IMG/VR virus record: IMGVR_UViG_3300024272_000034
From: a virus
Direction: 5' to 3' (one strand)
Length of the DNA: 64,000 nucleotides
Under the pieces are notes generated by a model. The model worked only from the letters and a program-made list of their open reading frames with translations. It had not been told where the DNA came from and searched no databases. The position numbers and the translations under genes were made by a program. This document shows positions 37,060 through 59,600 of the stretch, in pieces. Numbering within the stretch: position 1 is the first letter of the stretch; the number at the start of each line of letters is the position of its first letter.

Positions 37060-37114
37060 ATAGATATTGTGAGTAAAGCTACTGATTTATATTGGATTGA
37101 AGTTGAATAAAAAT

Positions 37115-37143
37115 TTGACATAAATAAAAATTTATGTTATAAT
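37115..37143 (+). promoter_or_regulatory. consensus sigma-A promoter TTGACA-N17-TATAAT at the head of the rSAM cassette
   Basis: Exact hexamers with a 17-nt spacer. Confidence 0.6.
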
Positions 37144-37177
37144 AATATAAAAGAAAAGAAAGGTTAGGTATTTAATT

Positions 37178-37483
37178 ATGGCAACTACTTTAACAATTAA
37201 TTATTCTGTAAATGGAGTAGAAAAGAATCTTATATTAACTGAAATTACTAGATGTTCTGAAGATTTTAAATCTGAATATGTTTCTTTAAATATTTCTTGT
37301 AATGATATTGTTGAAAATAGTATTTTAGGTGAATTAATGAATTCTATAATTTCTGATATCATTTTTATAGAAGACTCTGAAACTACCACTTTTACTAATT
37401 ATACTCGTCTTTATAATATTAATCGTTCTTATAAAGGTGAAGGTTCTTCTTTAACTTTTAATTTAAGAGAATATTTTAATTAA
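37178..37483 (+). CDS. hypothetical protein (101 aa, no TAG), first gene of the cassette
   Basis: RBS AAAGGTTAGG upstream. A clean ORF. Confidence 0.45.
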   Translation: MATTLTINYSVNGVEKNLILTEITRCSEDFKSEYVSLNISCNDIVENSILGELMNSIISDIIFIEDSETTTFTNYTRLYNINRSYKGEGSSLTFNLREYFN

Positions 37484-37519
37484 TTTATTAAATTAAAATG
37501 AATAAAGGAGGAATAATTT

Positions 37520-38689
37520 ATGGCAGCTGATGATAAAATATTAGCAACGTAGATTAGTACAAATTCTTCTTCCTGGTATCAAAGATTAAGAGCTATTTAG
37601 GCAAATAATAAAACAGGTATAGGCGGGTCTGCTTTATAGCAGACCGCCGACCCTGGTATCACTTCAGGAACGAAGATGACAGCAACACATATTAATAATT
37701 TTATTAATGCTTTAACAGCTTTAAAATCAAATGTATTTTTAGCTTATGCGGATTGGACTAATTATACTCCTTCTACTGTTTCTAGTGGTGGAAAAGCTAA
37801 TGCTTCTACTACATAGACTAAAATTAATAATATGTTAACATCACTAGAAAGTATATGTAGTAATTGTTAGACATATAGTACAAATAGTTATTCTAATACT
37901 TGTTCAAATAATGCTACAACTAGTTATTCAACCTATTCGGAAAGTATTGATAAATATAATTATTCTAATACATGTAAAACTACTTATAATTCCACAGAAT
38001 CTACAAACTCTACTTGGAGTGAAAGCTGTAAAACAACTTCTAATAGTACTAATAGCTATTGTTCTGATGCTAATTGTAGCGCTTATAGCGAGAATGAAAC
38101 TTGTGCAGAATTTTATGTTGGTAATAGCACTTATTCTACAGATAGCACTAGCTCAAATTCTACTTATGGAGTTGGAGATTCTACTTAGGCAACAGATGCT
38201 ACTTCTGTTTGTGCTACTTTATCAACTTATAATGATGAAATATCTTATAGTACAGATTGTAGTGATGGTTGTTGGGATTGTACTTTTCATTCTTATTGTC
38301 CTGCAGCTGAAGTAGCTACTTATAGCGTCGGAGAGTGTTCAACTAATGCTACTAATTCTGAAAATTCAACAGAAGGAGTTTGTAGCACTTGTAGTACTAA
38401 TTCTACTGATTTTTATTGTAATGAAAACTCTTGTACTGAACATACAAATAGAGGTACATATTCAAATCATTCACAATGTAGTACTTGTGGAAAAAACAGT
38501 ACATATAATGATACTTGTCAAACTTGTGAGACTGATTCAACCACATCAAATACAACTTATACTTAGTCAAATTCTACATATACTAACACTAATGATGGTT
38601 ATAGTACATATTCAAAAAAAGCTACATATGGAACATATACTAATACAAGTGGTAATTCAACATATTAGACTTATACGGTAAAAAATTAA
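37520..38689 (+). CDS. Cys/Ser/Thr/Asn/Tyr-rich protein (389 aa, 22 Cys, 9 in-frame TAG); candidate rSAM substrate
   Basis: RBS AAAGGAGGAA upstream. Codon-by-codon translation gives an ordinary ~100-aa N-terminal region, then ~290 aa of low-complexity S/T/N/Y-rich sequence with CxxC and Cx2-6C spacings (SICSNCQTY, SYCSDANCSAY, DCSDGCWDCTFHSYCP, CSTCSTNS, CNENSCTEH, CSTCGKNS, CQTCETDS). It ends at TAA 38687-38689. Confidence 0.6.
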
Positions 38690-38719
38690 TTGAAATGAGA
38701 TAAAGGAGAAAATATTTTA

Positions 38720-40078
38720 ATGTTACAAGATAGAGAAACAATTATTTTATATACTACAGCAGTATGTAATTTAAATTGTACTTATTGTTTTATTGATAAA
38801 AATCCAAGTTTAAAAAAGATAGATCAATGGCTTGATGATAGTTTTTTAAAAACTCCAGATTATTATTTTGAATATGCAAAAAAAGCCGTTTTACAAGAAA
38901 AACTAAAAGAAGTATAGATTTGGGGTGGAGAACCTTTTTTGGGTATGCATAGAGCCTATGCAACAATAGATAAATTTATTAATTATTTTCCAAATTTAAA
39001 AAATTTTATGACTTCTACAAATTTTGTATCTCATTGTTTTTTTGAAGAATTTTATGGACTTCTTGATATTTTTAGAAAGCATCCAAATAGAAATTTTACA
39101 TATAGTTTATAGTTATCATTAGATGGTGTAAAGGAAATAAATGATATTAATAGAGGTAATGGAGTTACTGATCGTTTTATTATTAATTTTGAAAAATTTG
39201 TTAAAGAATTACAAACTTTATTACCAAACAATTTAACATTAAAAATGCATTTAAAGCCCACTATTGATACAAATTCTTTGAAAAAATTATAGACTAAAGA
39301 ACAAGTTTTTGAACAATTTATCTTTTTTGAAAGCTTCAATGAAGTATATTTGAAATATAATAAAAAAAATAATTTACTATTTTCACTTCCAATTCCTAAT
39401 ACAGCTTGCCCATCTCCTCATACTCAAGAAGATGGAATAATGTTTGCAAATTATTGTAAAATAACAAGAGAGCTTGAAAAAGAAAATAAAAATAATAAAA
39501 TTTTTAAATTTTATAATAATATTACAAGCTTTACTCCAAGAAGAAAAATTCAATATGACAAACTTTCATTATCAGGATATTGTCAAGGTCATTGTGGTAA
39601 TGGAAAAAGAGCTATTGGTCTTTTACCTAACAATATGGTTTCTTGTTGTCATAATGGTTTTGTTGATTTGCTAGCTGAATATAAAAAGAATGTATTAACA
39701 AATAGTGAACATATGGATAATGTTACTATTGAAAAAAGTTTATTTAAAAATAAACGTAATACTTTAATTTTCCCTTATGATAGTAAAGAATTTGAAATGT
39801 ATCAAAAACAATTAGAAGTTTTTTATCAAAATGATGATACTGCCAAAATTTCTAATTGTGCTTCTTTAATTAAATTATTGGCTGATTTTGAACAAATTGA
39901 TAAAAAATATCAAGATAAAAAAGAAGCTGTTAAAGGTGCTTATTTTATTTTTAATACTACATCATATTGTGTTAGAGATAATTTAGGTGTGACTGGAAGC
40001 ATCTATATGTATCCTGTTGGTTTAATTAAATTATTGCTAAATGGAGCTAGAGAATATATTGAGGAAGGATGTAATTAA
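38720..40078 (+). CDS. radical SAM enzyme with C-terminal Cys-rich (SPASM/twitch-like) region (452 aa, 3 TAG)
   Basis: CNLNCTYC (CxxxCxxC) near the N-terminus and GGEP in IWGGEPFL. C-terminal cluster CQGHCGNGKRA...SCCHNGF. Track ORFs 38720 and 39350 are in frame across TAG. Confidence 0.7.
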
Positions 40079-41467
40079 ATGGCAAAGTGTTTAAATTTTT
40101 AGGAAGAAAAAGATGTTATTTTATGGTCATTAATTAATGATACATTTGGAAGACTTTTTTCTAAAGAAAAAAAAGAAGATATTGAACATGATATGGGGTT
40201 AGAAATTTATATAACCCCTGAATGTAATTAGAATTGTTCTTATTGTTATTTATGTAAAAATGGTGATGAACTTTATCCTAAAGAATTAAGAAATCCTACA
40301 ATAATTTTAAATAATTTAAAAATTATGTTAGATTATTGTATTGATAATAATTGGAATCCTGGAAGATTTGATTTTTTTTCTGGAGAAATTTGGGATACTG
40401 ATTTAGGTTATAATGTTTTAAGCATTACAGAAGAAGCAATAGAAAGAGGTTTTCACCCTAGACTAATTGTAATTCCATCAAATTTTAGTTTTATTTTAAA
40501 TGAAGAAGCTAAAAATAGAGTTGAAAAATTTATGGAAAAATGTAGACAATTTAATATAAAGCCATGTTGGTCTTGTTCTAATGATGGTTTATTGTTAGAT
40601 TTAGAGACAAGACCATTTAATTCAGATGAATTAAATGCAAAAAAAGATACTGAAGATTATTATAAAAAATTATTTGAATTTTGTAAAAAATGGAATTTAG
40701 GTTTTCATCCAATGGTGGCAGCACACGGAATTGAAAAATGGTCAGAAAATTTTTTATGGTGGATGTCAGAATTAAAGAAATATAAATTTGAAAGAAATTC
40801 TTCAATAATGTTTTTAGAAGTTAGAAACGATGATTGGACAGATGATAAAATTTATCATTATTTAAAATATTTAAATACTAGTATTAATTATTTAAATGAT
40901 GAATGTATTAATTTAAATACATTGTCTTTTGAAGATTATGTTAGAAAAACTAATAAAAATATTAAATACAATTATACACCTGTTATTTTAGAAAAATCAA
41001 GTTTATAGCCTGGATGCACTATTCATAGATCTTTAGTTATTCGTTTAGGTGATTTAGCAATAGTTCCTTGTCATAGAACTTCTTATGAAGAATTTATTAT
41101 AGGACATTTTAAAGTAGAGAATAATAAAATTATAGGAGTTACAGCTAAAAATATTCAAATAATGAATTAGGTATGGCTAAATAATATGAGTGGTAATGCT
41201 AAATGCACTAATTGTCCTTATAGCAATTACTGTATGAAAGGATGTTATGGTTCTTAGTTTGAATCTACTGGAGAATTATTATATCCAATAGAATCAGTAT
41301 GCAATTTATATAAAGCAAGAGCAATATTTATTTTTTATAAATATTTAAAAATGGGTATTTATAGAGAAGATAATCCCGAGGATAAAAAATATTTTGATTT
41401 TATTCAATCAATTAAAGATACGAAGGAGTTTAAAAAATGGTACAAAATTGTTTAGGAATTGATTTAA
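40079..41467 (+). CDS. second radical SAM enzyme with C-terminal Cys cluster (462 aa, 5 TAG)
   Basis: Start overlaps the upstream stop (TAAATG). The rSAM motif is CN(TAG)NCSYC, i.e. CxxxCxxC if TAG is sense. C-terminal CTNCPYSNYCMKGCYGS resembles SPASM. Track ORF 40325..41008 is in frame. Confidence 0.65.
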
Positions 41468-42036
41468 TTAATATTTATGAAAATCTTATCATAAATGGAT
41501 TAAATGTAGAATTAGCAAAAGATATTGAAAAATATTTGATTTATTTTTTAGACAATAACACTAATGAAAATTAGTTATTATTATATAATTTATTAAATAT
41601 TTTAAAACGTCAATAGAATACATCAATTCTTCTAAATTTTTTAATTCAAGAAGTTGAATTAAAGTTATTAAGATTAAGTTTTTCTAATAATGATATAAAA
41701 AATAATAAAGATTGTTATAATATTTCATCTTGTCAAAAAAATGAATCTAAAGAAGAATTAAAGAAAATTTTAAAAGTAACTAATAAAGATTTATTCCCTC
41801 CAAAAGGGACTACAACTCGTATTATTAATAAAAGAAAAGAAGAAAATGAAGAACATGAATATGTTTTAGAGATAGATGATCAAGGTAATGTTTTAGAAAT
41901 TTTAGAACATTATATAACAAAAAATGATGCAGATTCTATTGATATATTAAATGATTCTCCTTTAAGCAAACTTAAAGAAAAATATCTTAAAGAAGATAAA
42001 GAAAATAATTCTTTAACAGAAAATGATTTAGAATAA
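41437..42036 (+). CDS. hypothetical protein (199 aa, 2 TAG) overlapping the rSAM gene end
   Basis: Frame +2 relative to the previous gene. Acidic C-terminal half. Function unknown. Confidence 0.45.
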
Positions 42037-42061
42037 TATTAATAATTTAAATATTTCTAAA

Positions 42062-43138
42062 ATGGGATTAGGAATTATGCGTCATAATTCTAATCAACAA
42101 TATACAAAACAACTAATAGAATATGCTTTAAATAATAAAATTAATTATTTTGAAGCTTGTGATTTCTATTTACAAAACGCTTGTGAAATACGTCTTGGGG
42201 ATGCTTTAAAATAGCATCCTCGGACTTCATATAAATTATGTGATAAACTTCCATTATCTACAATTCCTTATTTTATTCAAAAAAATAAAAATTGGAATTT
42301 AAATGATTATTTTAATAATCAATTAGCAAAATGTAGAACTGATTATTTTGATGTTTATTTGATTTAGGCTTTAGATGAACGTAATTTTAATTACTTGGAA
42401 AAATATCAAATTATTGATTTCTTTTTAAAACAAAAAGAACAAGGAAAAATTAAATTATTGGGTTTTTCTTTTCATGGAAAAGTTGATATTTTAAAAAAAT
42501 TATTAGAAATGAAATGTTGGGATATCGTTTAGTTTCAATTAAATTATTATGATTGGATTTTAGGTGAGGCGAAAGAATTATATTTTTTAACAAAAGAATA
42601 TGATTTACCTATTATTACAATGGGACCAACTAAAGGCGGATTATTAATAAATAATTTACCTAAAAAATCATTAGATAGATTAAAAGAAAACAATATTAAT
42701 CCAGTCTATTTATGTTATTCTTTTTTAGAAACTTTAGACAACGTTAAAATTATTTTATCAGGAGCAGAAACTTATGAAATGATTAAAGATAATTTAAATT
42801 ATTTTGAAAATGAATCTCATAAATTAACTCCAGAAGAGTGGTAGCATATTAAACAAAATATTCAAGATTATCAAGAATAGAGTTTAATTCAATGTACGGG
42901 ATGTCGTTATTGTGTTCAAAGATGTCCTGCTAATTTACCAATAGATAAAATTTTTAAAGAATATAATAATTTTATTCAATCTAAAGATTTATAGTCAAGA
43001 GAATTTTTATATTAGAATATTCATAGTTCTAACTCTACACAGAATTGTAAAAATTGTGGTCAATGTGTAAAAATTTGTCCGCAACATTTAAATATTCCAG
43101 AAATTTTTCATAAACAAATTTTCCCAGTAAGGAGATGA
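42062..43138 (+). CDS. aldo/keto reductase-fold oxidoreductase fused to a 2x[4Fe-4S] ferredoxin domain (358 aa, 7 TAG)
   Basis: N-terminal AKR-like pattern (LGIMR...INYFEACDFY...LGDALK...KLLGFSFHG...ITMGPTKGGLL). C-terminal CTGCRYCVQRCP and CKNCGQCVKICP. Ends at TGA 43136-43138. Confidence 0.65.
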
Positions 43139-43142
43139 AAAA

Positions 43143-43553
43143 ATGGTAGTATCTGAATTAGTAGCTACAATTTTTCAAGTTTGTATAATTCCATTATTGG
43201 GTGTATTAACTACTTTTTTTGTAAAATGGGTTAATTCCAAAAGCGCAGAAATCTCAAATAAAATTGATGATGAAACATTAAATAAATATTTAAATATGCT
43301 TACTGAAACAATTAATACTTGCGTTTTAGCAACCAATTAGACATATGTTGAAAGTTTAAAACAACAAGGAAAGTTTGATGCGGAAGCGCAGAAAGAAGCA
43401 TTTAATTTAACTTGTTCAGCAGTAATGGATATTTTAAGTGAGGACGCAAAAGAATATTTAACTTCTGCTATTGGAGATTTACAAATTTATATTACAAAGA
43501 AAATTGAAGCTGAAGTACATACAAATAAAGTTACACCTTGTGTAAATCAATAA
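43143..43553 (+). CDS. small membrane protein (136 aa, 1 TAG), N-terminal TM helix
   Basis: RBS AAGGAGATGAAAAA upstream. Hydrophobic N-terminus LVATIFQVCIIPLLGVLTTFFV. Last gene before the terminator. Confidence 0.5.
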
Positions 43554-43563
43554 AATAAATATA

Positions 43564-43604
43564 GGGGAACCTTTAGTATAATCTAAAGGTTCCCCTTATT
43601 TTTG
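43564..43604 (+). terminator. rho-independent terminator closing the cassette
   Basis: GGGGAACCTTTAG-TATAAT-CTAAAGGTTCCCC hairpin followed by TTATTTTTG. Confidence 0.75.
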
Positions 43605-43620
43605 TTTATATTAAATTCTA

Positions 43621-44314
43621 TTATAAGTAAGCCAACGTTCACGAATTAAATCATGAGATTTTTTGGGAAAATATAATACTTCATCATTTTCAAAAGTTAA
43701 ATGGTCAGTATCAATAATCTTAATTTCACTTAAATTAATCAATAAACTTGTGCTAAAAATAAAAATTGCGGATGTTGGTTCAATGGAGTTATTGCTTTTT
43801 CAAAAGATGAGCGCAATGACTAACCATCAAACATTGTTCCATTTTTTAAATGATAACATAAACAACGTTTTACAATGTTAATATAATTAACTTGACTTGA
43901 GCGTATTCTTCTTTCACCTTCCGCAGTTTTAATTACCAAACTATCTTCTCTTATCTCTTTTTTAATTATATTAAATAATTCAAACAATTCTTCTTTTTCT
44001 ATTGGTTTTAAAAAATAATGATCTGCATGCACTTTATAAGCAGGATAAGCGAGAGAAGGATCTTCTCCAATAAAAATAAAATAACTATTTGGGTCTATTT
44101 TATCCATGCGATGACTTAACTCATATAGATTTTCTGATGAATCAGTGTCCATAATATAAACATCAAAACTTGCAGGAACAACAAGTAAATCTTCTGATTT
44201 ATCAAAAATTGATACTTTTGCCACAGACTTAGATTCTATTAAATATTCTTGAATCATCTCACGCAATTCATTTAAATATGTTTTGTTGTCATCATAAATA
44301 GCAATAGAGAGCAT
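43621..44314 (-). pseudogene. LytTR-family response regulator (receiver + LytTR DNA-binding domain), interrupted by an apparent -1 frameshift
   Basis: Track ORF 43820..44314 encodes the receiver-like N-terminus and the start of LytTR (VIKTAEGERRIRSSQVNYINIVKRCLCYHLKNGTMFDG). The domain continues through a TAG. It ends in another frame (LINLSEIKIIDTDHLTFENDEVLYFPKKSHDLIRERWLTYNRI, stop at 43621-43623). The shift falls in a T-rich tract (CAATTTTTATTTTTAGC). The cause could be a true frameshift, programmed slippage or a sequencing error. Confidence 0.5.
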
Positions 44315-44349
44315 ATTTAAACTCCTCCTTTAAAATTTTTTACAATATT

Positions 44350-44378
44350 ATTATAACATAAATTTGTGAGAAAATCAA
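44350..44378 (-). promoter_or_regulatory. sigma-A type promoter (TTGATT-N17-TATAAT on minus strand) for the LytTR gene
   Basis: Reverse complement reads TTGATT TTCTCACAAATTTATGT TATAAT, about 30 nt upstream of RBS AAAGGAGG and the ATG at 44314. Confidence 0.5.
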
Positions 44379-44386
44379 ATTTTTTT

Positions 44387-44501
44387 GTGTAAAAAGTGTA
44401 AAAAATTTTAATTTTTGAGTATTTGATTTTTAAATTTACTTTTTGACATTCGGATTTTAAAAATAAAATTGTAATTTTGAAAAATTGAATAAAAATTGTA
44501 A
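44387..44501. promoter_or_regulatory. direct-repeat cluster in the divergent intergenic region (candidate operators)
   Basis: Tandem GTGTAAAAA x2 at 44387-44404. AAATTGTAA / AAATTGAAT / AAATTGTAA at 44466, 44482 and 44493. Confidence 0.4.
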
Positions 44502-44626
44502 GGATGAAAAATCAGACAAAAAATGTGTGAGTGTTTCTTGTTTAAAAATCTGAAACAATTTTTATATAGTAATGGAAGGGTAAGAGAAAAATAAAAAAAA
44601 TGAATAAATACCTTGGAGGTGAATAT

Positions 44627-45103
44627 ATGAATTATCAATATAATCAGTAGCAGGTGAGTCCACCGCAGAATTAGACGACTCAGCAGTATTCTTACCAACG
44701 ACAAGTTCCTTATACTTCTGGAACTTGGAATGCGAGAGTCAGACCGGTTTCTTCAATTGAAGAAGTAAGAGCATCTTCAATTGATTTTGATGGCTCAATT
44801 TTTTATTTCCCAGATGTTGCTAATAAAAAAATCTATACTAAATTTATTAATTTAGATGGCTCTGTGGCAATTAATGTATATGAGTTAAAAGAAATGCCAA
44901 CAGGTTAGGCAGCAGATTCATCTTACATTACAAGAGAAGAATTTGAAAACGTAATTATGTAGTTAAAAATGATGTATAATAATTCTTCTGCGCCTTCTAC
45001 TCCAATAGAAGAATAGCAATAGGTATAGTAGTAGATGAATAGTAATTAGTTTGCGGCACCACCCGCACAATAGCAACATAATGTTTCGCCATTACAATTT
45101 TAA
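44627..45103 (+). CDS. hypothetical protein (158 aa) with Gln-rich C-terminus encoded by mixed CAA and TAG codons
   Basis: RBS GGAGGTGAA upstream. The C-terminus reads TAG CAA TAG GTA TAG TAG TAG ATG ... GCA CAA TAG CAA, which is QQQVQQQ...AQQQ if TAG=Gln. Ends at TAA 45101-45103. Confidence 0.55.
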
Positions 45104-45116
45104 GGAGGTATGAAGA

Positions 45117-45362
45117 ATGGCACAAGTTGATCCGAGACAATTAATAGCTATGATTAGAAATGGTCAAAATCCTCAACAACTTATGTTAAGTGTTTTAGAG
45201 ACGATGCAAGATACTCCTTTTGGAGCCAATTTATTGAATCTCGCTCGCAATGGTTAGACTGCGGAGATTGAAAAAATTGCTCGGAATATCACATCTCAAA
45301 GAGGTATGGATTATGATAAAGAGTTTAATGCCTTTAAACAATAGTTTTTTGGCTTTAAATAA
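45117..45362 (+). CDS. small hypothetical protein (81 aa, 2 TAG)
   Basis: RBS AAGGAGGTATGAAGA upstream. Ends at TAA 45360-45362. Confidence 0.45.
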
Positions 45363-45399
45363 ATAAAATATTTTTTTTAATTAAAGGAGGGTTTCTTTT

Positions 45400-46194
45400 A
45401 TGTTTAATTCTAATGGTTACAGTTTGGCAGATATCGTTGCCGCAACAGGTGGCGGTAGAGAGAATTGCGGCGGCTTCGGCGGCTGGGGCGGAGATGGATG
45501 GTGGATTATCCTCTTATTCTTGCTCTGGGGTAACAACGGCTGGGGCGGCAATCAAGGTGGACGTGGAACAGTTCGTGAAGAAATTGCTTATGGTTTTGAT
45601 ATGAACGGTTTAGAAAATAGCGTCCGTGGTGTTCAGCAAGGTATTTGTGATGGTTTCTATGCCATGAATACTGGTATGTTAAATGGATTTAGTAACATTC
45701 AAAATACTCTATGTCAAGGTTTCTCTGGTATCAATCAAGGTACAGCTCAGTAGACATTTGATTTATCTACTCAGTTACATGGTATGGCAGCTGATAATGC
45801 GGCTTGTTGCTGCGAAACTCAGCGCGCTATTGAAAGAGGATTTGCTGAAACCAACTATAACATGGCAACTCAAGCTTGCGATACTCGTAGAGCAATTGCT
45901 GATAGCACTCGTGATATTATTGACAGTAATAACGCAGGTGTTCGTTCTATTTTAGATTTCTTAACTCAGGATAAGATTGCTACTCTTACCGCAGAAAATC
46001 AGAGTCTAAAATTCGCAGCTTCTCAGGCAGCTCAGAACGCTTTCATTGCAGCTAATCAGGAAGCTCAAACCGCAGAACTTATTCGCAGACTTGATACCCC
46101 ATGTCCTATTCCCGCTTATGTAGTTCCTAATCCTAATTGTTGCTATCCATCTTATGGATATGGGTATGGCAACACTGGATGCTGCGGTGGTTAA
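45400..46194 (+). CDS. Gly/Trp/Cys-rich protein with one hydrophobic segment (264 aa, 1 TAG)
   Basis: RBS AAAGGAGGG upstream. Track ORFs 45400 and 45784 are in frame across the TAG at 45751. N-terminus GGFGGWGGDGWWIILLFLLWGNNGWGGNQGG. Cys clusters CCCETQ and NPNCCYPSYGYGYGNTGCCGG. Confidence 0.55.
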
Positions 46195-46219
46195 TTAACA
46201 AAGGAGGTAAAAAATCTGT

Positions 46220-46639
46220 ATGGAAATTATTGCTAATGCTTTATAGACAGTTCCAGCAAATCAGACTGTTTATTTCACAGATACCGCCGTATGCGGTGGC
46301 CCATCTATGACTCATAGAGCTGGTAGTGGTTTAATTACTCTTAGAGGAATTACTAATCAATGTAGAGCAAGATTCCGCATCACTTTTGGAGCAAATATTG
46401 CTGTTCCAACAGGAGAAACAGTTGGACCAATTTCATTGGCTATTGCGATAGAGGGTGAACCTCTTCAAGCTACTACAATGATTGAAACACCAGCGGCTGT
46501 TGAAGAGTTCTCAAATGTTTCAAGAACTACCTTTATTGATGTTCCTCGTGGATGTTGTGTAAGTGTAAGTGTAAGAAATGTAAGTGATATTCCAGTAAAT
46601 GTACAAAACGCAAACTTAATTGTTGAACGTGTTGCTTAA
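46220..46639 (+). CDS. BclA C-terminal-domain-like (C1q/TNF-like) protein (139 aa, 1 TAG)
   Basis: RBS AAGGAGGTAAAAAA upstream. The C-terminus ...NVQNANLIVERVA and the internal RFRITFGANI...GPISLAIAIEGEPL pattern resemble the BclA exosporium CTD, which ends ...IIIEKVA. The assignment is by motif recall only. Confidence 0.4.
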
Positions 46640-46657
46640 TGAAAGGAGGTCTTATAA

Positions 46658-47305
46658 ATGGAGAAAAGATTAGAACATATGAAAGAATCTTTAATGGCTT
46701 GCGTTGAAAGTCAATTAACTCATTTAGATACAGTTGATACTAAAGAATTAGGTGAAGCCATTGATATGATTAAAGACCTTGAAGAAGCAATCTATTATTG
46801 TACTATTACAAAAGCAATGAAGGAACAGGATAAAGGAGAAAAAGAATCTCATAAATATTATCCAGTAATGTATAATAGAGATATGGATAGAGATATGGGA
46901 AAAATGTATTATGAAAACCCAAATTATATGGGTGGTAATGATACAAAACGTCAATATTCATCTGGAAATGGAGGAGGCAACTCCTCCTCCATGAGTAATT
47001 CTTCTGGAAGCGGAGGAGGTAATTCATCCTCTGGAAATACTGGTTCAAAACAATATAGTGAAACAGAATATAATTTAATGCGCGACCAGCGTGAAGGACG
47101 TAGTCCTCAGTCGCGCCGCATGTATATGGAATCAAAAGAAATGCATTCAGATAAAGCAACTCAAATGCGTGAATTAGAAACTTATATGCAAGAGTTAACT
47201 CAAGATGTAGTTGAAATGGTTGAAGGTGCAACTGTTGAAGAAAAGCAGTATTTAAGTAAACGAGTAGCAGCTCTTGCAAACAAATTGGCTCAATTAAATG
47301 ATTAA
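46658..47305 (+). CDS. hypothetical protein with Gly/Ser/Asn low-complexity core (215 aa, no TAG)
   Basis: RBS AAAGGAGGTC upstream. A clean ORF. The core repeats NGGGNSSSMSNSSGSGGGNSSSGN. Confidence 0.5.
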   Translation: MEKRLEHMKESLMACVESQLTHLDTVDTKELGEAIDMIKDLEEAIYYCTITKAMKEQDKGEKESHKYYPVMYNRDMDRDMGKMYYENPNYMGGNDTKRQYSSGNGGGNSSSMSNSSGSGGGNSSSGNTGSKQYSETEYNLMRDQREGRSPQSRRMYMESKEMHSDKATQMRELETYMQELTQDVVEMVEGATVEEKQYLSKRVAALANKLAQLND

Positions 47306-47561
47306 CATTAATGGTGAACAATGGAGAGTGTTTTTAACCTCTCCATTTCACCCTGCTTTAAAACGCAGTGATGGTGCTTATACTCTAGGATGCTGTGATG
47401 ATGTAACAAAAACAATTTATATAAGTAATGATGTAAGTGATAAATATTTAAAAAAAGTTTTATGCCACGAACTCACTCACGCCGCAATGTTTAGCTACAA
47501 CGTAGATTTGACTTATGAGCAAGAGGAAGTTCTCGCTGATATTATAGCAACATATGGATAG
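47298..47561 (+). CDS. small HExxH-motif protein, putative minimal zinc metallopeptidase (87 aa)
   Basis: LCHELTHAAMF contains HExxH. Overlaps the previous gene by 8 nt. Confidence 0.4.
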   Translation: MININGEQWRVFLTSPFHPALKRSDGAYTLGCCDDVTKTIYISNDVSDKYLKKVLCHELTHAAMFSYNVDLTYEQEEVLADIIATYG

Positions 47562-47630
47562 GAAATTATTCATATGGCAAATCTTCTCTTTAAGAGGTTA
47601 AAAGATGAAAGAGAAGAAGAAAGAAAAAAT

Positions 47631-47668
47631 GGGAGTATCTAATAATTTAGATACTCCCATTTTTTTTG
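47631..47668. terminator. bidirectional rho-independent terminator between the convergent modules
   Basis: GGGAGTATCT-AATAATTT-AGATACTCCC hairpin with an A run upstream and a T run downstream. Confidence 0.7.
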
Positions 47669-54333: not shown

Positions 54334-54559
54334 TTATGTCAATAGCCTCATCTTCATATTCATATTTTAATTGATTAGGTAATTCATTACGATAAAAAGT
54401 ATATTTCCTTTTACAGGTAGGACAAAAATAAACATACTGTTCAGGATAAGTACATAAAACTTTACCAGTACTTTTTATTTCTTCATTACAATCTTCACAA
54501 TAAAAGCTATCTATATAGATAGCTTTTACATATCGTCTTTTAATTTTCATCTTCTTCAA
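54320..54559 (-). CDS. small zinc-ribbon protein (79 aa)
   Basis: CEDCNEE...CPTCKRKY. Overlaps its neighbours. Confidence 0.4.
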   Translation of the reverse strand: MKKMKIKRRYVKAIYIDSFYCEDCNEEIKSTGKVLCTYPEQYVYFCPTCKRKYTFYRNELPNQLKYEYEDEAIDINEEV

Positions 54560-57047
54560 TTCCTCCTTGATAACGTTCCGAAGTTAATTTTAAATCAGTT
54601 TTATTTACAATTTCTTCAATTTTATACAACTGATGACCTGGCGTACTATTGTATTTTTTAACAATAAAATTATCTCCAGAACGAATACCCATAACCGCAA
54701 TCATATTACCACGATTAAACCAAGATTTTTCTACAATCTTTTTAGTTCCATCAGGATTTTTGATAGAAATTTGTTTATCAAATAAAGAAAAATATTCTTT
54801 TCTAAATTTAACTTCTACAACTCCATGAGTTGTTAATAACGTTACTGTGCTTTTAACCTTATTTTTTGCTATACAGGTTCCGCAAATTTTATGAAGTTTA
54901 AACATATGAATTTCTTTTCCTCCACGAGCAAACACTTGGTCTACTATTGGTTCTTCTGGCAAAGCAAAGAAATCAACAAATCCATATTTATTATGATTTA
55001 CATCAATTAATTCATGTTCGTGATAATAAAAACATAAAACTTCCATCTCCCAAGCAGAAATTGTACCTGAAGCATATTTCTCCCAATCTTCAAGAAAAAC
55101 AGCATCATTTATTTTTACTAAGATTTCATCTTTATTTTCATTAATCCATGTTCTAAAAATATCCATCCAATTTTGATAAATTTTTTCCCATTGCTTAATA
55201 TTCATAAAGAAAATTGTATCTTTTGTTATAATCAAATTATCACAATGTACTTCAATAAGAAAATTAATAGCTCTTTCATCTAATTTATATAATTCATTAT
55301 TAAATTTACAAATTGCTTTTAAATAACGATTAAATTCATATACTCTTCTTGCTAAAATTTGTTCTTCAGTTTCAGATGGAAGTAGATTATATTTAATTAA
55401 TCCACCCATATTTTGTAGAGTAATTCTTTTTTTTCTATCGCAAGTTTCCCAAATATACCAAGCCATACAAGTTTTACGTTCCATCATATCATCAAAAGCT
55501 CCACCCTTAATCAATGAAATCATAGCTTGCTTGCCTGGATTTACTTTATTCAAAAAATCTCGCGGAGATACATAAGGTCTATGTTCAATGATAGATGCTA
55601 CGACATCATCACCAACATTTAATAATCCTTTTAAACCAAAAAGAATTCTATTGTTCTCAGCATCTGGCGCAAAGCCATATTTAGATTTATTAATATTTGC
55701 TAAACTAACTTTAATACCAGCAGCTTGAATATCACCAATAGCTTTCGCAATTTTACCATAATCAGTACTTGCGCCAGCTTCTTCATCAGTTGCGCCACTA
55801 TTAACAATTAAACAAGCTGTATTCCAATAGATAGGATTAAATTTAGTTGCCAATAAAATTGTTTGAATACCAACAAATGAATAAGGTAATGAATGATTTA
55901 AACTAAAAGCATATCCAAGTTGTGGAGCGACCGCAACTTCCCAGACATAATCTGCTATATTAGAATTTCCAATTTTTTCATACACTTGCGCTTTTAATTC
56001 CGGAATTTTTGACATCTGTTTTTTTGCTACTATTTTACGAGCAGCGTTTGCTTCACCTAAAGTAAAATTAGCAACCTCCATCAAAATTTCCATCATTTGC
56101 TCTTGGATAGGACAGCAACCATAATATTTATCACAATGTTTATGCATTAACTCAATCATTTTTTCAGGCAAATGATTAAATTTCATTTCTTTATCAAAAA
56201 TATTAATTCCTGATTTTTGAATGCGAGCATATCTATCTTGCTGACTTTCTTTACCTTTTTCAGACATAAGTCTCATCATAGCATTTGCGGCAGTCATCTC
56301 TAAAGGATTTTGTGGTTTAAGTTTTTTCGCAATTGCTAATCCAACACCACCACTAAACTGAAATACATCCAATATATCACCTGCGGCTAAATGATTCCAA
56401 ATATAATTTTCAGATGTGTCAATTATTTCTGGATGAATATATTTATTATAAGTTTCTCTTAAACCAATATTTTCAATTAAATTATCCTCATGTAACATTT
56501 CAAAACATTTAATAATTTTATCAGAAACTTCAGTTACAAGAAAATCATATTTAGTATCACCTGCTGCTTCCGCCGCATGTAAGTCAAAACAAGTAATTAA
56601 ATCTCCATTTGGTGCTCTCATAAAAGATGCTGTATCAAATGGATTTTTATCATAAAGAATTACACCAGAAGCATGAATGCCACGTTTATTTACTAATCCC
56701 TCTATTGAAATGATAATATCAACCAATCCAGGATATTGATTAACTTCTTTTATAAAAGTTGTAACTGGTTTTCTATCTTTTTCTTCATCACCATATAATA
56801 CTTCTGAAATAGACCATAAAAATCCACGTTCTTGAGGAATTAATGATGACATATATTGCGCTACATCTACATCTATTCCTTCTGGATATTCTTCACTTCT
56901 ATAACCACGACAAGCTGTAAGAACAGCTGATTTAGTTCCTTCAGTTCCAAAAGTTGCTACCTGAACCAAACCAAATTCTCCACGTTCTTTACGAATTGCT
57001 TCAAAAATCGCTGGTCTTTTACTTGGAGCCAGGTCTATATCAATATC
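54540..57047 (-). CDS. dnaE: DNA polymerase III alpha subunit, exon 2 (836 codons), begins DIDIDLAPSKRPAIFEAIRKERG
   Basis: The track ORF from 56969 extends in frame to 57047 with no stops. The conserved PDIDIDF / GEFGLVQVATFGT motifs are reconstituted across the splice. Confidence 0.8.
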   Translation of the reverse strand, partial: DIDIDLAPSKRPAIFEAIRKERGEFGLVQVATFGTEGTKSAVLTACRGYRSEEYPEGIDVDVAQYMSSLIPQERGFLWSISEVLYGDEEKDRKPVTTFIKEVNQYPGLVDIIISIEGLVNKRGIHASGVILYDKNPFDTASFMRAPNGDLITCFDLHAAEAAGDTKYDFLVTEVSDKIIKCFEMLHEDNLIENIGLRETYNKYIHPEIIDTSENYIWNHLAAGDILDVFQFSGGVGLAIAKKLKPQNPLEMTAANAMMRLMSEKGKESQQDRYARIQKSGINIFDKEMKFNHLPEKMIELMHKHCDKYYGCCPIQEQMMEILMEVANFTLGEANAARKIVAKKQMSKIPELKAQVYEKIGNSNIADYVWEVAVAPQLGYAFSLNHSLPYSFVGIQTILLATKFNPIYWNTACLIVNSGATDEEAGASTDYGKIAKAIGDIQAAGIKVSLANINKSKYGFAPDAENNRILFGLKGLLNVGDDVVASIIEHRPYVSPRDFLNKVNPGKQAMISLIKGGAFDDMMERKTCMAWYIWETCDRKKRITLQNMGGLIKYNLLPSETEEQILARRVYEFNRYLKAICKFNNELYKLDERAINFLIEVHCDNLIITKDTIFFMNIKQWEKIYQNWMDIFRTWINENKDEILVKINDAVFLEDWEKYASGTISAWEMEVLCFYYHEHELIDVNHNKYGFVDFFALPEEPIVDQVFARGGKEIHMFKLHKICGTCIAKNKVKSTVTLLTTHGVVEVKFRKEYFSLFDKQISIKNPDGTKKIVEKSWFNRGNMIAVMGIRSGDNFIVKKYNSTPGHQLYKIEEIVNKTDLKLTSERYQGGIEEDEN

Positions 57048-58229
57048 CGTTTATTGGACTATATTTTTCATAATGACTTACTAAGAGCATTTTACTTCAG
57101 TCATTACTAGAACATCTTTCAGACGGTGCTTATCTCCGCCTTACATAAATAGTCTCTACACATTTAATCTTATTTTTCTATTTGTTTCCAATAATAGCCT
57201 TTATATAAAGTTCCATTTTTAATCGCTTTATCTAATTGAGTGTGTCCTTTCATTCCTAAGAATTGTAAGACTGCGGTTTTAGCATTAAATATTTGAATTA
57301 AATTGTAATTTTCATCATACATTTCAATTCGTTTTCCATTTAATGCTTGATTACCACTTTTACCATACATACCATTTTTTTCGCCAGCGGTTTTACCTTT
57401 ACTATTTACAGACATTTTCTACTTAGACTCTTCTGTATGTTTTTTACCATACATTCCATTATTAGAACCTTTTGTTTTTTCACTCATTTTTTGTTTAAAC
57501 TCTTCAGTTCTATAAGGAGAGTTGTCTCTTTCAAATTCTGCCCAATAAGATAAAAATGCTTTAGTTTTTTCACTATGGTATTTTCCATACATTCCATTAT
57601 TCTTACCACGATTTACTTCACTTAATTTTCGGCACAAAACTTCTTTTTCTTCTGGTGTATATCCTGCGGTAGTGTTTCCTCCACAACCGCCCTCATGAAT
57701 ATTATAAAACAATGGATTTGATGTGGCATTATATAAGGCAATAAATTGTTTTTCTTTTTCACTATTTTCTAAATCATTTTTAGAAACAAATAAAATGGAC
57801 TTTGTAAAACAGTCTTTTCCATATTTGGCAATTTCTTTTTTCAATTCTTTTCCGCTGCCTAAATATGAATCATCTAATTCTCCATAATGTTTTCCGATAT
57901 ATTTCATACCATTTATATTATTAGTAGTTAAATAAATATAATGTTGTTTCATTTAAACAACCCCCTTTCATATATATTTAACTTTTAGAATTAGACAATG
58001 ACCTGACTTTGTCCAAGATTTTTAGCACGGTATTCCCAATCTAACCTTTTTTAGGTCATAGGGTCTCTTAGTCAGTTGATTCGCATTTATATAACATAAA
58101 TCTTATTTCGCTGATACCGTTAGCCTGCGGTTACTCGTCTCGCCGGTCGGATGACCGGGCCGCCGCAGACACCCATTAAGCAATGGTTAATGTTCTTTTT
58201 TTACAACTGCCCAATATCAATATTAGACT
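57048..58229 (-). mobile_element. group I intron in dnaE carrying a GIY-YIG homing endonuclease gene
   Basis: Exon 1 ends ...NKERAELP at 58230 and exon 2 starts at 57047. Joining them restores the conserved DnaE motif. The intron follows a U and ends in G. Its 5' part (58090-58170) is GC-rich and structured. The read-through tail after exon 1 (SLILILGSCKKRTLTIA) is unconserved. Confidence 0.7.
57170..57952 (-). CDS. GIY-YIG homing endonuclease with four NUMOD3 (NGMYGK) repeats (260 aa) containing one in-frame TAG
   Basis: The N-terminus YIYLTTNNINGMKYIGKH is the GIY-YIG motif. Track ORFs 57419..57952 and 57170..57415 are in one frame separated only by a TAG (TEESK-TAG-KMSVNSKGK). The C-terminus has an HTH-like IKNGTLYKGYYW. 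RBS GGGGG upstream. Confidence 0.7.
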
Positions 58230-59600
58230 AGGCAGTTCGGCTCTCTCTTTATTTAAAAATCTCCAATAAGGGAGACCCCAACGAATTGGGTCAAGTTGAG
58301 TAATACCAAGCAAATAATTTGAAAGAAAACCGGTCGCAGAACCTCGTCCAGGTCCAACAATTGAACCGCATTCCCAAAACAAATCAATATAATGTTTAAA
58401 AGTATTGAAATAAGCGAAAAGACAATCATCAAGTTTTTCTCCAATAAACTTAATTACATCTGCCTCAATTTCAATACGATTAATATATTCTTCATTAAAT
58501 AAATTTTTATTTATTAATTCTTGTAGACATTCATTAATCCAATATCTTTCTTGAGATTCATCAGATATTAAAAGTGATTTAATAATCGGCCAATTAGTAT
58601 CTAATTCATCTTTTAATGAATTATTAATACCAAAATAAGATAAAGTTTTAGGATAATCTTTTACTTTTACTTTTGGAATAATTTGTTTTCTTTCAATTGA
58701 ATAAAATTCAATTTTATTTTTTATTTCATTTGTATTATTTAAAATCCATTCTGAAATATCATCATCTTGATAAGCATATGTTAATAATTCTTTAGCTTCA
58801 TTATAATCCATTAAACGAGCAAATTCATAAAATGAATCAACTTCTCGTTCTCCACCTTTAGAATTTAAATAAGCTTTATGAACCCATCTATCTTGACTTG
58901 TATAATAATGAGCATCAGTTCCTGCGACTAATTTAATTCCAAAAGATTGAGAAATAGAGTATAATTTTTTATTAACCAATACTTGGTCTTTTGTAGTTGC
59001 TGGGGCGCATTCTAAATAGAAATCATCACCAAATAATTCAAGACAATAATTAATAAAATCAATTATTTTTGAATAATATACTTTCATTGTTTCCATGTCT
59101 TGAACTTCTTCAGCTAAACAAAATTGTAATAAATTTGATGATAATTCTCCACCAAGACAAGCTGTTGTAGCTATTAAATGTCCTTTATATTTATTAACAA
59201 TAGTTGATAATTCTTTTTTTAAAACTGGAACTCTTTCCATTTTTCTATCAACATATAAATTATACCAAGCTATTGAACTTAATTCTTTTAATGCCATATA
59301 ACCAATTTTATCTTTGGCAATTAAAATAAAGTGATAATATTTTTGACCACTACTTCTATCATCTGTTAAATAAATTTCATTACCAAGTGCAATTGTAAAA
59401 TCTGGATTTGTCTCTCTCAATTTCTTAGCATATTGATTTACTTCCATGTGCGCAGATAAACATTCATGGTCTGTAATTGCTATACCGTTTAAACCCAATT
59501 CAATTGCTTTATCAATTAAATCTTTAGGTCTATTTATACAATCAAGTAAGCGAATATTTGAATACATTGTATGATTATGACAATTAAAATAACTGTTCAT
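58230..59600 (-). CDS. dnaE: DNA polymerase III alpha subunit, exon 1 (PHP domain, 457 codons)
   Basis: N-terminal PHP motifs CHNHTMYS, AITDHEC. Ends ...RFLNKERAELP before the intron. Confidence 0.8.

Follow-up and report, generated by a model that had tools for sequence, protein, structure and literature searches.

Our analysis indicates that the window, the whole 64,000-nucleotide stretch of viral DNA that was analysed, carries on its minus strand (44314-43611) a gene for a response regulator composed of a receiver and a LytTR domain. It is described best, and with moderate confidence for all its parts taken together, as a gene found throughout a phage clade, whose codon 165 (TAG) is read as Gln, whose copy in the window has suffered a private deletion, and whose product would bind an adjacent array of 27-bp repeats and govern the promoters on both sides of it. 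The frameshift plus stop that first drew attention to the gene is not biologically special, being a normal codon and a single private deletion. The value lies in the conserved system, a regulator in fixed synteny together with a delimited candidate operator (six 27-bp units, two promoters) unlike the textbook LytTR site.

Domain architecture and homology of the regulator

Once the missing base is put back and TAG is translated as Gln, the ORF runs from its ATG to a TAA at 43611-43613 and has 234 codons; as written, it is interrupted by one in-frame TAG and one frame change. The structure was modelled with AlphaFold2 for P0001, an intact homologue 97% identical to the window protein (pLDDT 87.9). 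The model has the CheY-like (beta-alpha)5 receiver fold, with strands and helices over residues 2-123, and its best match in Foldseek is full-length ComE (4cbv, E 2.7e-13). Numerous receiver domains match it at TM 0.7-0.83, and on the LytTR side it matches the LytTR domain of AgrA (4g4k, TM 0.81, rmsd 2.1) as well as 4xqj, 3bs1 and 3d6w. The divergently oriented receiver and LytTR regulator proposed in the initial annotation is thus borne out by the model, by Foldseek and by a transitive profile search, which reached ordinary REC+LytTR proteins over their full length at 1e-24 to 1e-30.

Compared with PDB sequences, the family profile matched the receivers of LytTR regulators (6m8o at 4e-8, MrkE); all its matches at E <= 0.01 were receivers, and none was a LytTR chain. 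Pfam PF00072 was found in 61 of 74 family members at E <= 0.01, the window protein scoring 21.9 bits (cut-off 30.2), and Pfam LytTR matched just one of the 74 at the same threshold. The LytTR HMM, by which the initial annotation had proposed to judge the joined translation, gave 17.4 bits for it, which falls below the cut-off of 22.6, in a match that spans profile positions 6-96 of 98, across the TAG and the frame break. We keep the LytTR assignment despite this failure because of the fold and the transitive profile evidence; the Pfam LytTR cut-off is passed by 6 of 10 sampled proteins from that search. NCBIfam gave only weak LytR/BtsR similarity for the regulator, and phrog_8810, which has no assigned function, matches it over its whole length (2.4e-20).

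The window belongs to a large siphophage that is SPbeta-like, has a Gram-positive host (Clostridia-type) and reads TAG as glutamine. Its PolIII alpha is 39.5% identical to that of SPbeta-group phages (best annotated match), and the YorF and YorH Pfam families occur just past the window end. Throughout the clade the regulator gene is conserved and syntenic, always lying between the holin gene and the divergently transcribed operon. A search of 185,579 species genomes (GTDB) gave no copy of the regulator, and just two relatives were found in IMG/VR; the DNA of 43000-45200 had no match among GenBank phages, where the protein matches of the regulator were all below 30% identity. This clade of TAG-recoded SPbeta-like gut phages is undescribed so far.

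TAG as a glutamine codon

The ORF content of the window rises from 13.9k to 23.7k aa once TAG is no longer taken as a stop. In ORFs of 3309, 2075 and 1816 codons there are 78, 25 and 28 TAGs, respectively, and all 42 tabulated window ORFs end in TAA or TGA (TAG terminator in 0 of 42). The TAG share of Gln codons is 28-67% in most large structural genes and 17-67% across the plus-strand block. Position 165 of the regulator is Gln in 73 of 74 homologues, its codon is CAG in a 97%-identical relative (L001), and the same TAG recurs in four otherwise identical assemblies; among the orthologues, 13 of 16 carry 1-5 TAGs at varied places in the gene, while its length stays at ~235 codons. The in-frame TAG noted initially is thus present, but by this alignment it is a normal Gln codon of a code-15 phage and not a second lesion. 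Standard-code annotation mis-calls such genes, the JGI calls splitting the regulator into 164 + 68 aa.

No tRNA was found in the 64-kb window with ARAGORN; suppressor tRNAs are missing from some recoded phages (PMC10607447). Full-length regulator would be producible only after TAG suppression becomes active. The core replication genes of the window phage are TAG-free. The use of TAG as a marker of a strictly 'late' regulator is weakened by the NrdD, NrdG and Gmk genes of some relatives, which do carry TAG, and late-only translation of the regulator is not firmly established because of such TAGs in replication genes.

Promoters and the 27-bp repeat array

The initial annotation had given the gene its own near-consensus promoter, pointing away from the plus-strand genes, and this holds: the promoter has 10 of 12 consensus matches with a TG upstream of the -10, and it is kept in 15 of 16 relatives with sufficient upstream sequence, including the spacer TCrCAAAAATATG (Table 1). 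It reads as a strong, conserved sigma-A-type extended -10 promoter. The intergenic region that it shares with the plus-strand genes measures 312 bp (44315-44626) and not 310 bp as first given. On the other side of this region, the TATAGT of the candidate divergent promoter lies inside a conserved block, TATATAGTAATGGAAGGGTAAGAG (44563-44586). The exosporium-like character attributed to the downstream genes applies to one of them, g4, which has a BclA-CTD/BxpB/ExsFA fold. Rfam returned nothing credible on 43300-45300, its sole match being a microRNA model (23.9 bits) on the terminator hairpin.

Six 27-bp units, all in the same orientation, occupy exactly the gap that separates the -35 regions of the two divergent promoters. 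Self-identity of the region at lag 27 is 0.53, versus 0.35 +/- 0.04 in shuffles (0 of 2000 as high). The autocorrelation maximum in relatives is also 27 bp and the phasing recurs in distant relatives, with in-phase boxes at -12, -39, -66, -93 and -121 from the -35 and a CAC-type core at 45 of 72 in-phase positions (12 distant relatives). In the window's own subclade the boxes are degenerate, and the CAC core is kept in the two promoter-proximal units only.

The repeats picked out at the outset, two copies of GTGTAAAAA and three of AAATTG(T/A)A(A/T) at 16 and 11 bp, are present and belong to this conserved array. The ACACA core of the promoter-proximal unit ends 7 nt 5' of the regulator -35, and it does so at the same distance in nearly all relatives. 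The first and third AAATTG(T/A)A(A/T) copies, whose starts differ by 27 bp, form the cores (TTACAATTTT) of two neighbouring units, and the second straddles a unit junction; the outermost unit is kept in relatives as ACTCAC(A/G). As single words, TTACAATTTT (6 versus 1.7 expected) and GTGTAAAAA (6 versus 1.75 expected) are mildly enriched in the window. A search of the 64 kb for the composite unit, with a pattern one base out of register, gave 5 matches versus 2.3 expected, none of them convincing, and so no second copy of that unit outside the array.

Table 1. Features of the regulator locus and its surroundings (positions in the window).
Feature	Position	Strand	Basis or details
Holin gene, convergent with regulator	43131-43553		phrog_13712 at 1e-31
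Bidirectional intrinsic terminator	43563-43596	both	14-bp stem, common to the convergent holin gene
Response-regulator gene	43611-44314	-	receiver, residues 1-123; LytTR domain, ~125-232
Premature TGA	43739-43741	-	three codons past the deletion (...FLFLA-QVY-stop)
Private 1-nt deletion site	43750-43751	-	alignment to L001 and four assemblies; Pro189 codon
In-frame TAG, codon 165, Gln	43820-43822	-	homologue alignment; code-15 window
Shine-Dalgarno AAAGGAGGAG of regulator gene	44322-44331	-	sequence
Regulator promoter	44350-44378	-	-35 TTGATT 44378-44373; 17-nt spacer; extended -10 TGtTATAAT (hexamer 44355-44350)
Six 27-bp direct-repeat units	44379-44540	-	self-similarity; relatives' in-phase boxes; units, high to low, 44540-44514, 44513-44487, 44486-44460, 44459-44433, 44432-44406, 44405-44379
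GTGTAAAAA x2 (TTTTTACAC x2 on gene strand)	44387-44404	+	promoter-proximal unit; tandem copies 44387-44395 and 44396-44404
AAATTG(T/A)A(A/T) x3	44466-44501	+	AAATTGTAA, AAATTGAAT, AAATTGTAA starting at 44466, 44482, 44493; spacings 16, 11 bp
GTGTGAGTGT (ACACTCACAC on gene strand)	44525-44534	+	outermost unit; adjoins the -35 region of the divergent promoter
Candidate divergent promoter	44541-44586	+	weak -35 TTTAAA/TTAAAA; 17-18 nt; TATAGT 44565-44570
Divergent operon g1-g6	44627-47642	+	presumed target of the regulator
g1	44627-45103	+	11 TAG codons
g2	45117-45362	+	
g3	45400-46194	+	Gly/Cys-rich; phrog_16490
g4	46220-46639	+	BclA/ExsF fold; phrog_20016
g5	46658-47305	+	
g6	47298-47642	+	M78-like

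Proposed regulation through the array

From their adjacency and conservation, we infer that the regulator binds the array and controls both promoters. It would bind the 27-bp units and would probably do so in oligomeric form. Feedback on its own transcription may proceed from the unit that lies 7 nt 5' of the regulator's -35, and perhaps also from a box-like stretch of the promoter spacer. The outermost unit may serve it to activate the promoter with the weak -35 that drives the divergent operon (g1-g6, among them the gene of the exosporium-fold protein). Against this model, the regulator promoter, being near-consensus, should itself need no activator; the 27-bp period and the number of units (4-6) differ from the described LytTR pair at 21-22 bp; within the window's subclade the boxes have become degenerate; and the g3-g4 module also occurs in other phages without such a regulator.

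The spacing of canonical LytTR repeats is 21-22 bp. Described LytTR operators are pairs of 9-11-bp direct repeats with 11-13 bp between them, and in LytTR systems with autoactivation direct repeats lie 4-11 bp 5' of the -35 of an extended -10 promoter (PMC6193735). The layout of LytTR operators initially ascribed to the region is found here in part: direct repeats abut the -35 of an extended -10 promoter, with the proximal core at a fitting position (7 nt versus the reported 4-11 bp), but the 27-bp period, the 4-6 units, the 9-bp tandem and the 16/11-bp sub-spacings are all unlike the described pair.

It is possible, though unlikely, that the array is instead bound by some other phage or host protein, as an iteron-like origin or in partition or packaging, or that it merely consists of phased A/T tracts curving the promoter DNA, and, as part of the same estimate, that the targets of the regulator lie elsewhere, for instance among the LytTR-controlled genes of the host. 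The units are rich in T/A tracts, their period differs from described LytTR sites (PMC6193735), their boxes have degenerated in the window's subclade and no array-like unit elsewhere in the window would define a regulon, all of which agrees with this alternative; its difficulty is that the array always adjoins the regulator gene, that all units have a single orientation and that the end units stand at fixed distances from both -35 regions, with the core at 7 nt in nearly all relatives. The cumulative GC skew moreover peaks near 47-48 kb with no origin-like minimum at the array, and replication-initiator and partition genes are not among the flanking genes; the origin or iteron version is rejected on these two grounds.

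Receiver pocket and possible signal input

In the phosphorylation pocket of the receiver, the acceptor Asp56 is present in 71 of 74 homologues, Lys103 in 69 and Pro104 in all 74, and the acidic pair and the Thr/Ser position appear from the alignment to have drifted, with Ser in 56 and Asp in 15 at position 8, Asp in 51 and Asn in 15 at position 9, and Ser in 41 and Gly in 28 at position 83 (the Thr/Ser site). The corresponding residues of the window protein are D8, D9, D56, G83 and K103. HisKA and HATPase_c were absent among the Pfam marks of the genes from 40.6 kb to ~10 kb past the right end and from the scanned neighbours, and a crude motif scan (N-box/G1-box plus H-box) in six frames of the window gave no histidine kinase, so that none was seen in the about 74 kb covered. 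The cognate kinase or peptide gene that the initial annotation suggested looking for was found neither in the window nor in the ~10 kb past its right end. The drifted pocket and the lack of a kinase nearby suggest that the regulator would either be phosphorylated by a host kinase or be active without phosphorylation.

A more far-reaching reading, which we consider decidedly doubtful, would join these elements: an orphan AgrA-like regulator, translated only after the switch to TAG = Gln and activated by a host LytTR-pathway kinase, would polymerise on the array, eavesdrop on quorum or sporulation signalling, and switch on the operon for exosporium-like surface proteins (BclA/ExsF-fold and Cys/Gly-rich). 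If true, this would amount to a new LytTR operator geometry and to a new phage strategy, in which the expression of late or conversion genes is coupled to host signalling and to a switch of the genetic code. The system bears on how LytTR domains read multi-copy arrays and on whether phages read host kinases via orphan response regulators.

The frame break

The -1 shift reported initially is confirmed, the frame 3' of the break being -1 relative to the 5' frame, but its placement in a T-rich tract at 43690-43720 is wrong. The alignment puts it at 43750/43751, where one G of a plus-strand GG is missing, that is, one C of the gene-strand CCA for Pro189 (GCA CCA AGT becomes GCA CAA GT), a residue invariant in 74 of 74 homologues. 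The TGA that follows stops the ORF after 191 codons and costs the LytTR domain its final 46 residues, among them those of the invariant PSLLIN strand; as written, the window copy is unable to yield a complete LytTR domain.

Over 1.1 kb, the deleted base is the single difference between the window and four assemblies (L025, L026, L027, L030), all of which encode the intact 234 aa, and 40659-64000 differs from a single JGI contig (L025 + L032) by one mismatch and the deletion gap. More than 300 homologues are intact, and 16 orthologous loci likewise have one continuous frame. An exact-word search of IMG/VR and GTDB genomes found neither the deleted nor the intact allele, and no record was found of the 43-aa ORF unique to the deletion allele. 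The deletion is thus private to the window copy. It reflects either a null allele of recent origin or an error in the consensus, and not programmed frameshifting, because the four otherwise identical assemblies and more than 300 homologues are intact.

That the gene is instead a decaying pseudogene, and the region a relic without current function in this phage, is improbable. The ORF as written does stop short of 46 residues, invariant ones among them, as expected of such decay, but its lesions number one, TAG being a sense codon, and the 1.1-kb gene region shows 0 other substitutions relative to the four intact, otherwise identical copies. In addition, the promoter, Shine-Dalgarno sequence and terminator are all intact, and the conserved family has 22-23 invariant positions and ~56 nearly invariant ones; decay could at most be a loss that one population suffered very recently. 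The break might also be read as programmed -1 frameshifting by the ribosome, or as slippage of transcription along the T-rich tract, that sets the level of full-length regulator. This reading would accord with the -1 downstream frame and the T runs (TTTTTATTTTT) just 5' of the break, but has next to no chance of being correct and is already refuted by the intact relatives, for the break lies at GCA C(C)A AGT, away from the T runs, GCA CAA GTT offers no X XXY YYZ heptamer, and the four identical assemblies, the 97% relative, the 16 orthologous loci and the more than 300 proteins have a single continuous frame.

Comparison with known systems

The TAG-to-Gln gut phages (Borges et al., bioRxiv 10.1101/2021.08.26.457843; phAss-1 group, PMC10607447) likewise have low GC, TAG-rich structural and lysis genes and, as in the window phage, core replication genes free of TAG, and phAss-1 shares with the window a giant tape-measure protein of ~3300 aa, PolIII alpha, NrdD/G, dUTPase and a holin (PMC10607447). 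Unlike these phages, the window has no DNA match in the phage collection and its PolIII alpha is closest to the SPbeta group; a response regulator is mentioned in neither of the two papers.

LytTR-domain genes of the Pseudomonas phages Lu11, PMG1 and D3, proposed to 'listen in' on host agr-like signalling, also encode phage-borne LytTR-type proteins (PMC3901668). They differ in belonging to unrelated phages of Gram-negative hosts, in being uncharacterised and in having no described operator. To our knowledge, phage-borne LytTR regulators have been noted before and never characterised.

Regulators of the AgrA/ComE type have the same two-domain architecture and fold, with conserved acceptor Asp and Lys. 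They differ from the window regulator, which is phage-encoded and has no adjacent kinase or peptide genes that we found, whose family has a drifted acidic pair and Thr/Ser position and a LytTR sequence below the Pfam cut-off, and whose gene contains TAG sense codons and adjoins an array of 4-6 units with a 27-bp period in place of two repeats 21-22 bp apart. The arrangement of the locus resembles that of agr, where the direct repeats to which AgrA binds lie between two divergent promoters, P2 and P3, and the regulator gene likewise stands beside a divergent promoter pair with same-orientation repeats in between (PMC4227749). As in other LytTR systems, the proximal repeat lies a few bp 5' of the -35 of an extended -10 promoter (PMC6193735). 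RemA of Bacillus subtilis has no receiver domain, and its LytTR-like fold binds sites that are repetitive and poorly conserved (PMC8481266); by analogy only, it would resemble the regulator proposed here in placing such a fold on several weakly conserved repeats and not on one dimer site.

Results

The two anomalies flagged in the regulator, a minus-strand response-regulator gene, are ordinary: one recoded codon and one private indel. The window (28% GC) is that of a TAG-recoded phage, in which TAG is read as glutamine. Taking TAG as sense raises its long-ORF content from 13.9k to 23.7k residues and gives ORFs of 3309 codons (78 TAGs), 2075 codons (25 TAGs) and 1816 codons (28 TAGs); TAG is the terminator of none of the 42 listed ORFs, and the 64-kb window holds no tRNA genes. 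TAG writes 28-67% of the Gln codons in most large structural genes and 17-67% across the plus-strand block, and none in the NrdD, NrdG, Gmk, PolIII alpha and helicase genes. In three more distant relatives (L002, L004 and L005), TAG also occurs in the replication and nucleotide-metabolism genes (NrdD/NrdG/Gmk; 16 TAGs in nine genes), and the extent of recoding therefore varies inside the clade. Standard-code gene calling cuts the intact regulator gene of one JGI assembly (3300029705, 2953-3657) into 164 and 68 aa, and public annotations of this phage group show the same kind of fragmentation.

The TAG at codon 165 of the regulator, first taken for an anomaly, encodes glutamine. The frame is continuous in all of the more than 300 homologues (~235 aa), Gln165 is kept in 73 of the 74 aligned, and the codon is CAG in the 97%-identical relative L001. 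Of 16 orthologous loci, 13 have between one and five TAGs, placed elsewhere in the gene; their length is still ~235 codons, and they terminate at TAA or TGA. The frame change ahead of the last ~45 codons is a private one-base deletion. It is the sole indel against L001 in 861 aligned bases (GCACCAAGT to GCA-CAAGT), and over 1100 bases four independent assemblies, three from ENA samples and one from JGI, differ from the window at this base alone (AACTTGTGCT in the window, AACTTGGTGCT in the assemblies), all encoding an intact 234-aa regulator that also has TAG165. Over 23.3 kb (40659-64000), one JGI contig differs from the window by only one mismatch and the deletion gap. The missing base falls in the codon of Pro189, invariant in 74/74 homologues, and a TGA follows three codons on, cutting the last 46 residues from the product as written, among them those of the C-terminal helix and the invariant PSLLIN strand. 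An exact-word search found the deletion allele nowhere else in IMG/VR and GTDB genomes; the change is either genuine, making this a null allele, or an error of the consensus. Programmed frameshifting is excluded, since the site has no slippery heptamer and no relative examined has a two-frame arrangement.

Features of the window discussed in the text
Feature	Coordinates	Strand	Remarks
Regulator	44314-43611	-	Receiver then LytTR-like domain; translation read from sequence
In-frame TAG	43820-43822		Codon 165
Regulator promoter	44378-44350	-	TTGATT, 17 nt, TGtTATAAT
Repeat array	44379-44540		27-bp units
GTGTGAGTGT	44525-44534		Unit adjoining divergent promoter
Divergent promoter	44563-44586 (block)	+	Candidate; weak -35, -10 TATAGT, within conserved block
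g1	44627-45103	+	Gln-rich
g3	45400-46194	+	Gly/Cys-rich
g4	46220-46639	+	BclA-CTD/BxpB/ExsFA (TNF-like) fold, structure model
Peptidase	47298-47642	+	M78/SprT-like, HExxH
Accessory cassette	37113-43127
Cassette protein	37517-38689		389 aa, Ser/Thr/Cys/Asn-rich
Cassette protein	38699-40078		Radical SAM enzyme
Cassette protein	40079-41467		Second CxxxCxxC protein
Cassette protein			Acidic, 199 aa
Cassette protein	42017-43138		Aldo-keto reductase fused to two 4Fe-4S clusters
PolIII alpha	54540-59600	-	Split
PolIII alpha, N part	58176-59600	-	474 aa
PolIII alpha, C part	54540-56852	-	770 aa
Homing endonuclease	57170-57952		GIY-YIG/NUMOD3

The joined regulator translation scores below the Pfam cut-offs for Response_reg (21.9 vs 30.2 bits) and LytTR (17.4 vs 22.6 bits), although the LytTR match spans profile positions 6-96 of 98, bridging both the TAG and the frame change. 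The AlphaFold2 model of the protein of the 97% relative (pLDDT 87.9) consists of a (beta-alpha)5 receiver and, C-terminal to it, an all-beta domain; its top Foldseek match is full-length ComE (4cbv, E 2.7e-13), and the AgrA LytTR domain also matches (TM 0.81, rmsd 2.1). The family profile matches 9717 representative proteins (E <= 0.001), those matched over their full length at 1e-24 to 1e-30 being ordinary receiver plus LytTR proteins; among ten sampled, six pass the LytTR and eight the receiver Pfam cut-off. The regulator matches phrog_8810 (function not known) end to end. Since only 1/74 family members hits Pfam LytTR directly (E <= 0.01), the initial description as a divergent LytTR protein is the right one. 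In the 74 aligned receivers, Asp56 is kept in 71, Lys103 in 69 and Pro104 in all; the first acidic position is mainly Ser, the second is Asn in 15, and Gly occupies the Thr/Ser position in 28, including the window protein. Phosphorylation is possible, though not assured. Pfam marks over 40.6-74 kb include no kinase families, and a scan of the window gave no kinase motifs.

Of the 16 relatives whose upstream sequence is long enough, 15 keep the regulator promoter, spacer motif TCrCAAAAATATG included. Exactly six 27-bp units make up the 162 bp separating the two divergent -35 regions, and lag-27 self-identity is 0.53 vs 0.35 +/- 0.04 in shuffles (reached in 0/2000); lag 27 is the maximum in relatives too. 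The repeats first noticed here are real and belong to this array: two successive units have the first and third AAATTGTAA copies as their cores, the copy between these straddles a unit junction, and the unit adjoining the regulator's -35 is formed by the tandem GTGTAAAAA pair. The window's subclade has degenerate inner units and retains the CAC core in the two end units only. Twelve more distant relatives have ACAC(A/G)AA-type cores upstream of the regulator promoter, at -12, -39, -66, -93/-95 and -121/-122 relative to the first -35 base, filling 45 of 72 in-phase positions against a chance expectation of ~1% per position (a rough estimate from base composition). All cores share a single orientation, and the unit consensus in relatives is approximately TttC-N4-tACACAAAtTTttTT. 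The 64 kb contain no further array copies.

Gene order is the same in every relative with enough sequence: tail genes, holin, the regulator on the opposite strand, the divergent operon, then RuvC, dUTPase, NrdG, NrdD, Gmk and PolIII alpha. A search of 185,579 species genomes turned up no relative. The divergent operon encodes products of 124-133 aa and 81 aa, phrog_16490 (g3), phrog_20016 (g4) and a ~210-aa product, and ends in the window's subclade with an M78-like peptidase gene. Its first gene, g1, has no family match, and its TAG density is among the highest in the window (11/158 codons, 48% of its Gln codons). The g4 model (pLDDT 88) resembles the exosporium proteins BclA-CTD, BxpB and ExsFA (TM 0.73-0.78), so the label 'exosporium-like' given to the downstream genes is valid for g4 at the level of fold. 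Its family is very large and conserved (at least 7997 proteins; the best 120 all >= 72% identical). The g3-g4 pair (34% GC vs ~27% elsewhere) is mobile: small temperate phages that lack a regulator of this type (Dulem virus 33 and Butyrivibrio virus Ceridwen) carry it too, between the lysis genes and the integrase or lysogeny-control genes. The peptidase gene closes the plus-strand block, and gene orientation flips there (47669); the cumulative GC skew has its maximum at ~47-48 kb, resembling a terminus or module boundary.

The window encodes a giant tape-measure protein, holin (phrog_13712), RuvC, dUTPase, NrdD/G and a split PolIII alpha, with YorF, YorH, DnaB and a RecJ-like gene just outside. 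Such a gene set is indicative of an SPbeta-like lineage; PolIII alpha shares 39.5% identity with that of SPbeta-group phages. A Clostridia-type host is indicated by the strong Shine-Dalgarno sequences and by the g3-g4 module, which Ceridwen and the lemur-gut 'Dulem' viruses also have. A similar group of recoded siphophages, phAss-1, has been described (PMC10607447); a search with 43000-45200 found no DNA similarity to GenBank phages. PolIII alpha is a single gene of ~1320 aa in relatives, and its interruption by a homing-endonuclease gene is therefore probably an intron with its endonuclease. The accessory cassette, absent from L001, L002, L004 and L005 and with TAG codons in all its genes, looks like a protein- or peptide-modification cassette within the late block.

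Discussion

Because the layout of the locus resembles that of described LytTR systems, we propose that the regulator may bind the array, where it would exert feedback on its own promoter as well as switch on the weak divergent promoter. Its synthesis would need TAG suppression, and its activity either a host kinase or no phosphorylation whatever. The regulator may instead act on a host regulon. Binding of the array by another protein is made less likely, as is a structural DNA role of the array, by the GC-skew profile and by the end units, which keep a fixed register with the two promoters.

In described LytTR systems, the regulator gene lies beside a divergent promoter pair separated by same-orientation repeats; the promoter is of the extended -10 type, and the proximal repeat precedes its -35 by a few bp (PMC4227749, PMC6193735). 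The LytTR-operator layout proposed in the initial annotation holds in these respects: the phage gene adjoins such a pair, its repeats lie between the promoters in one orientation, and the proximal repeat again lies a few bp ahead of the -35 of a promoter with an extended -10. It departs from them in its 27-bp period and number of units. The conserved phage regulator and its unusual repeat array are of modest interest, as a testable variation on a known type of system.
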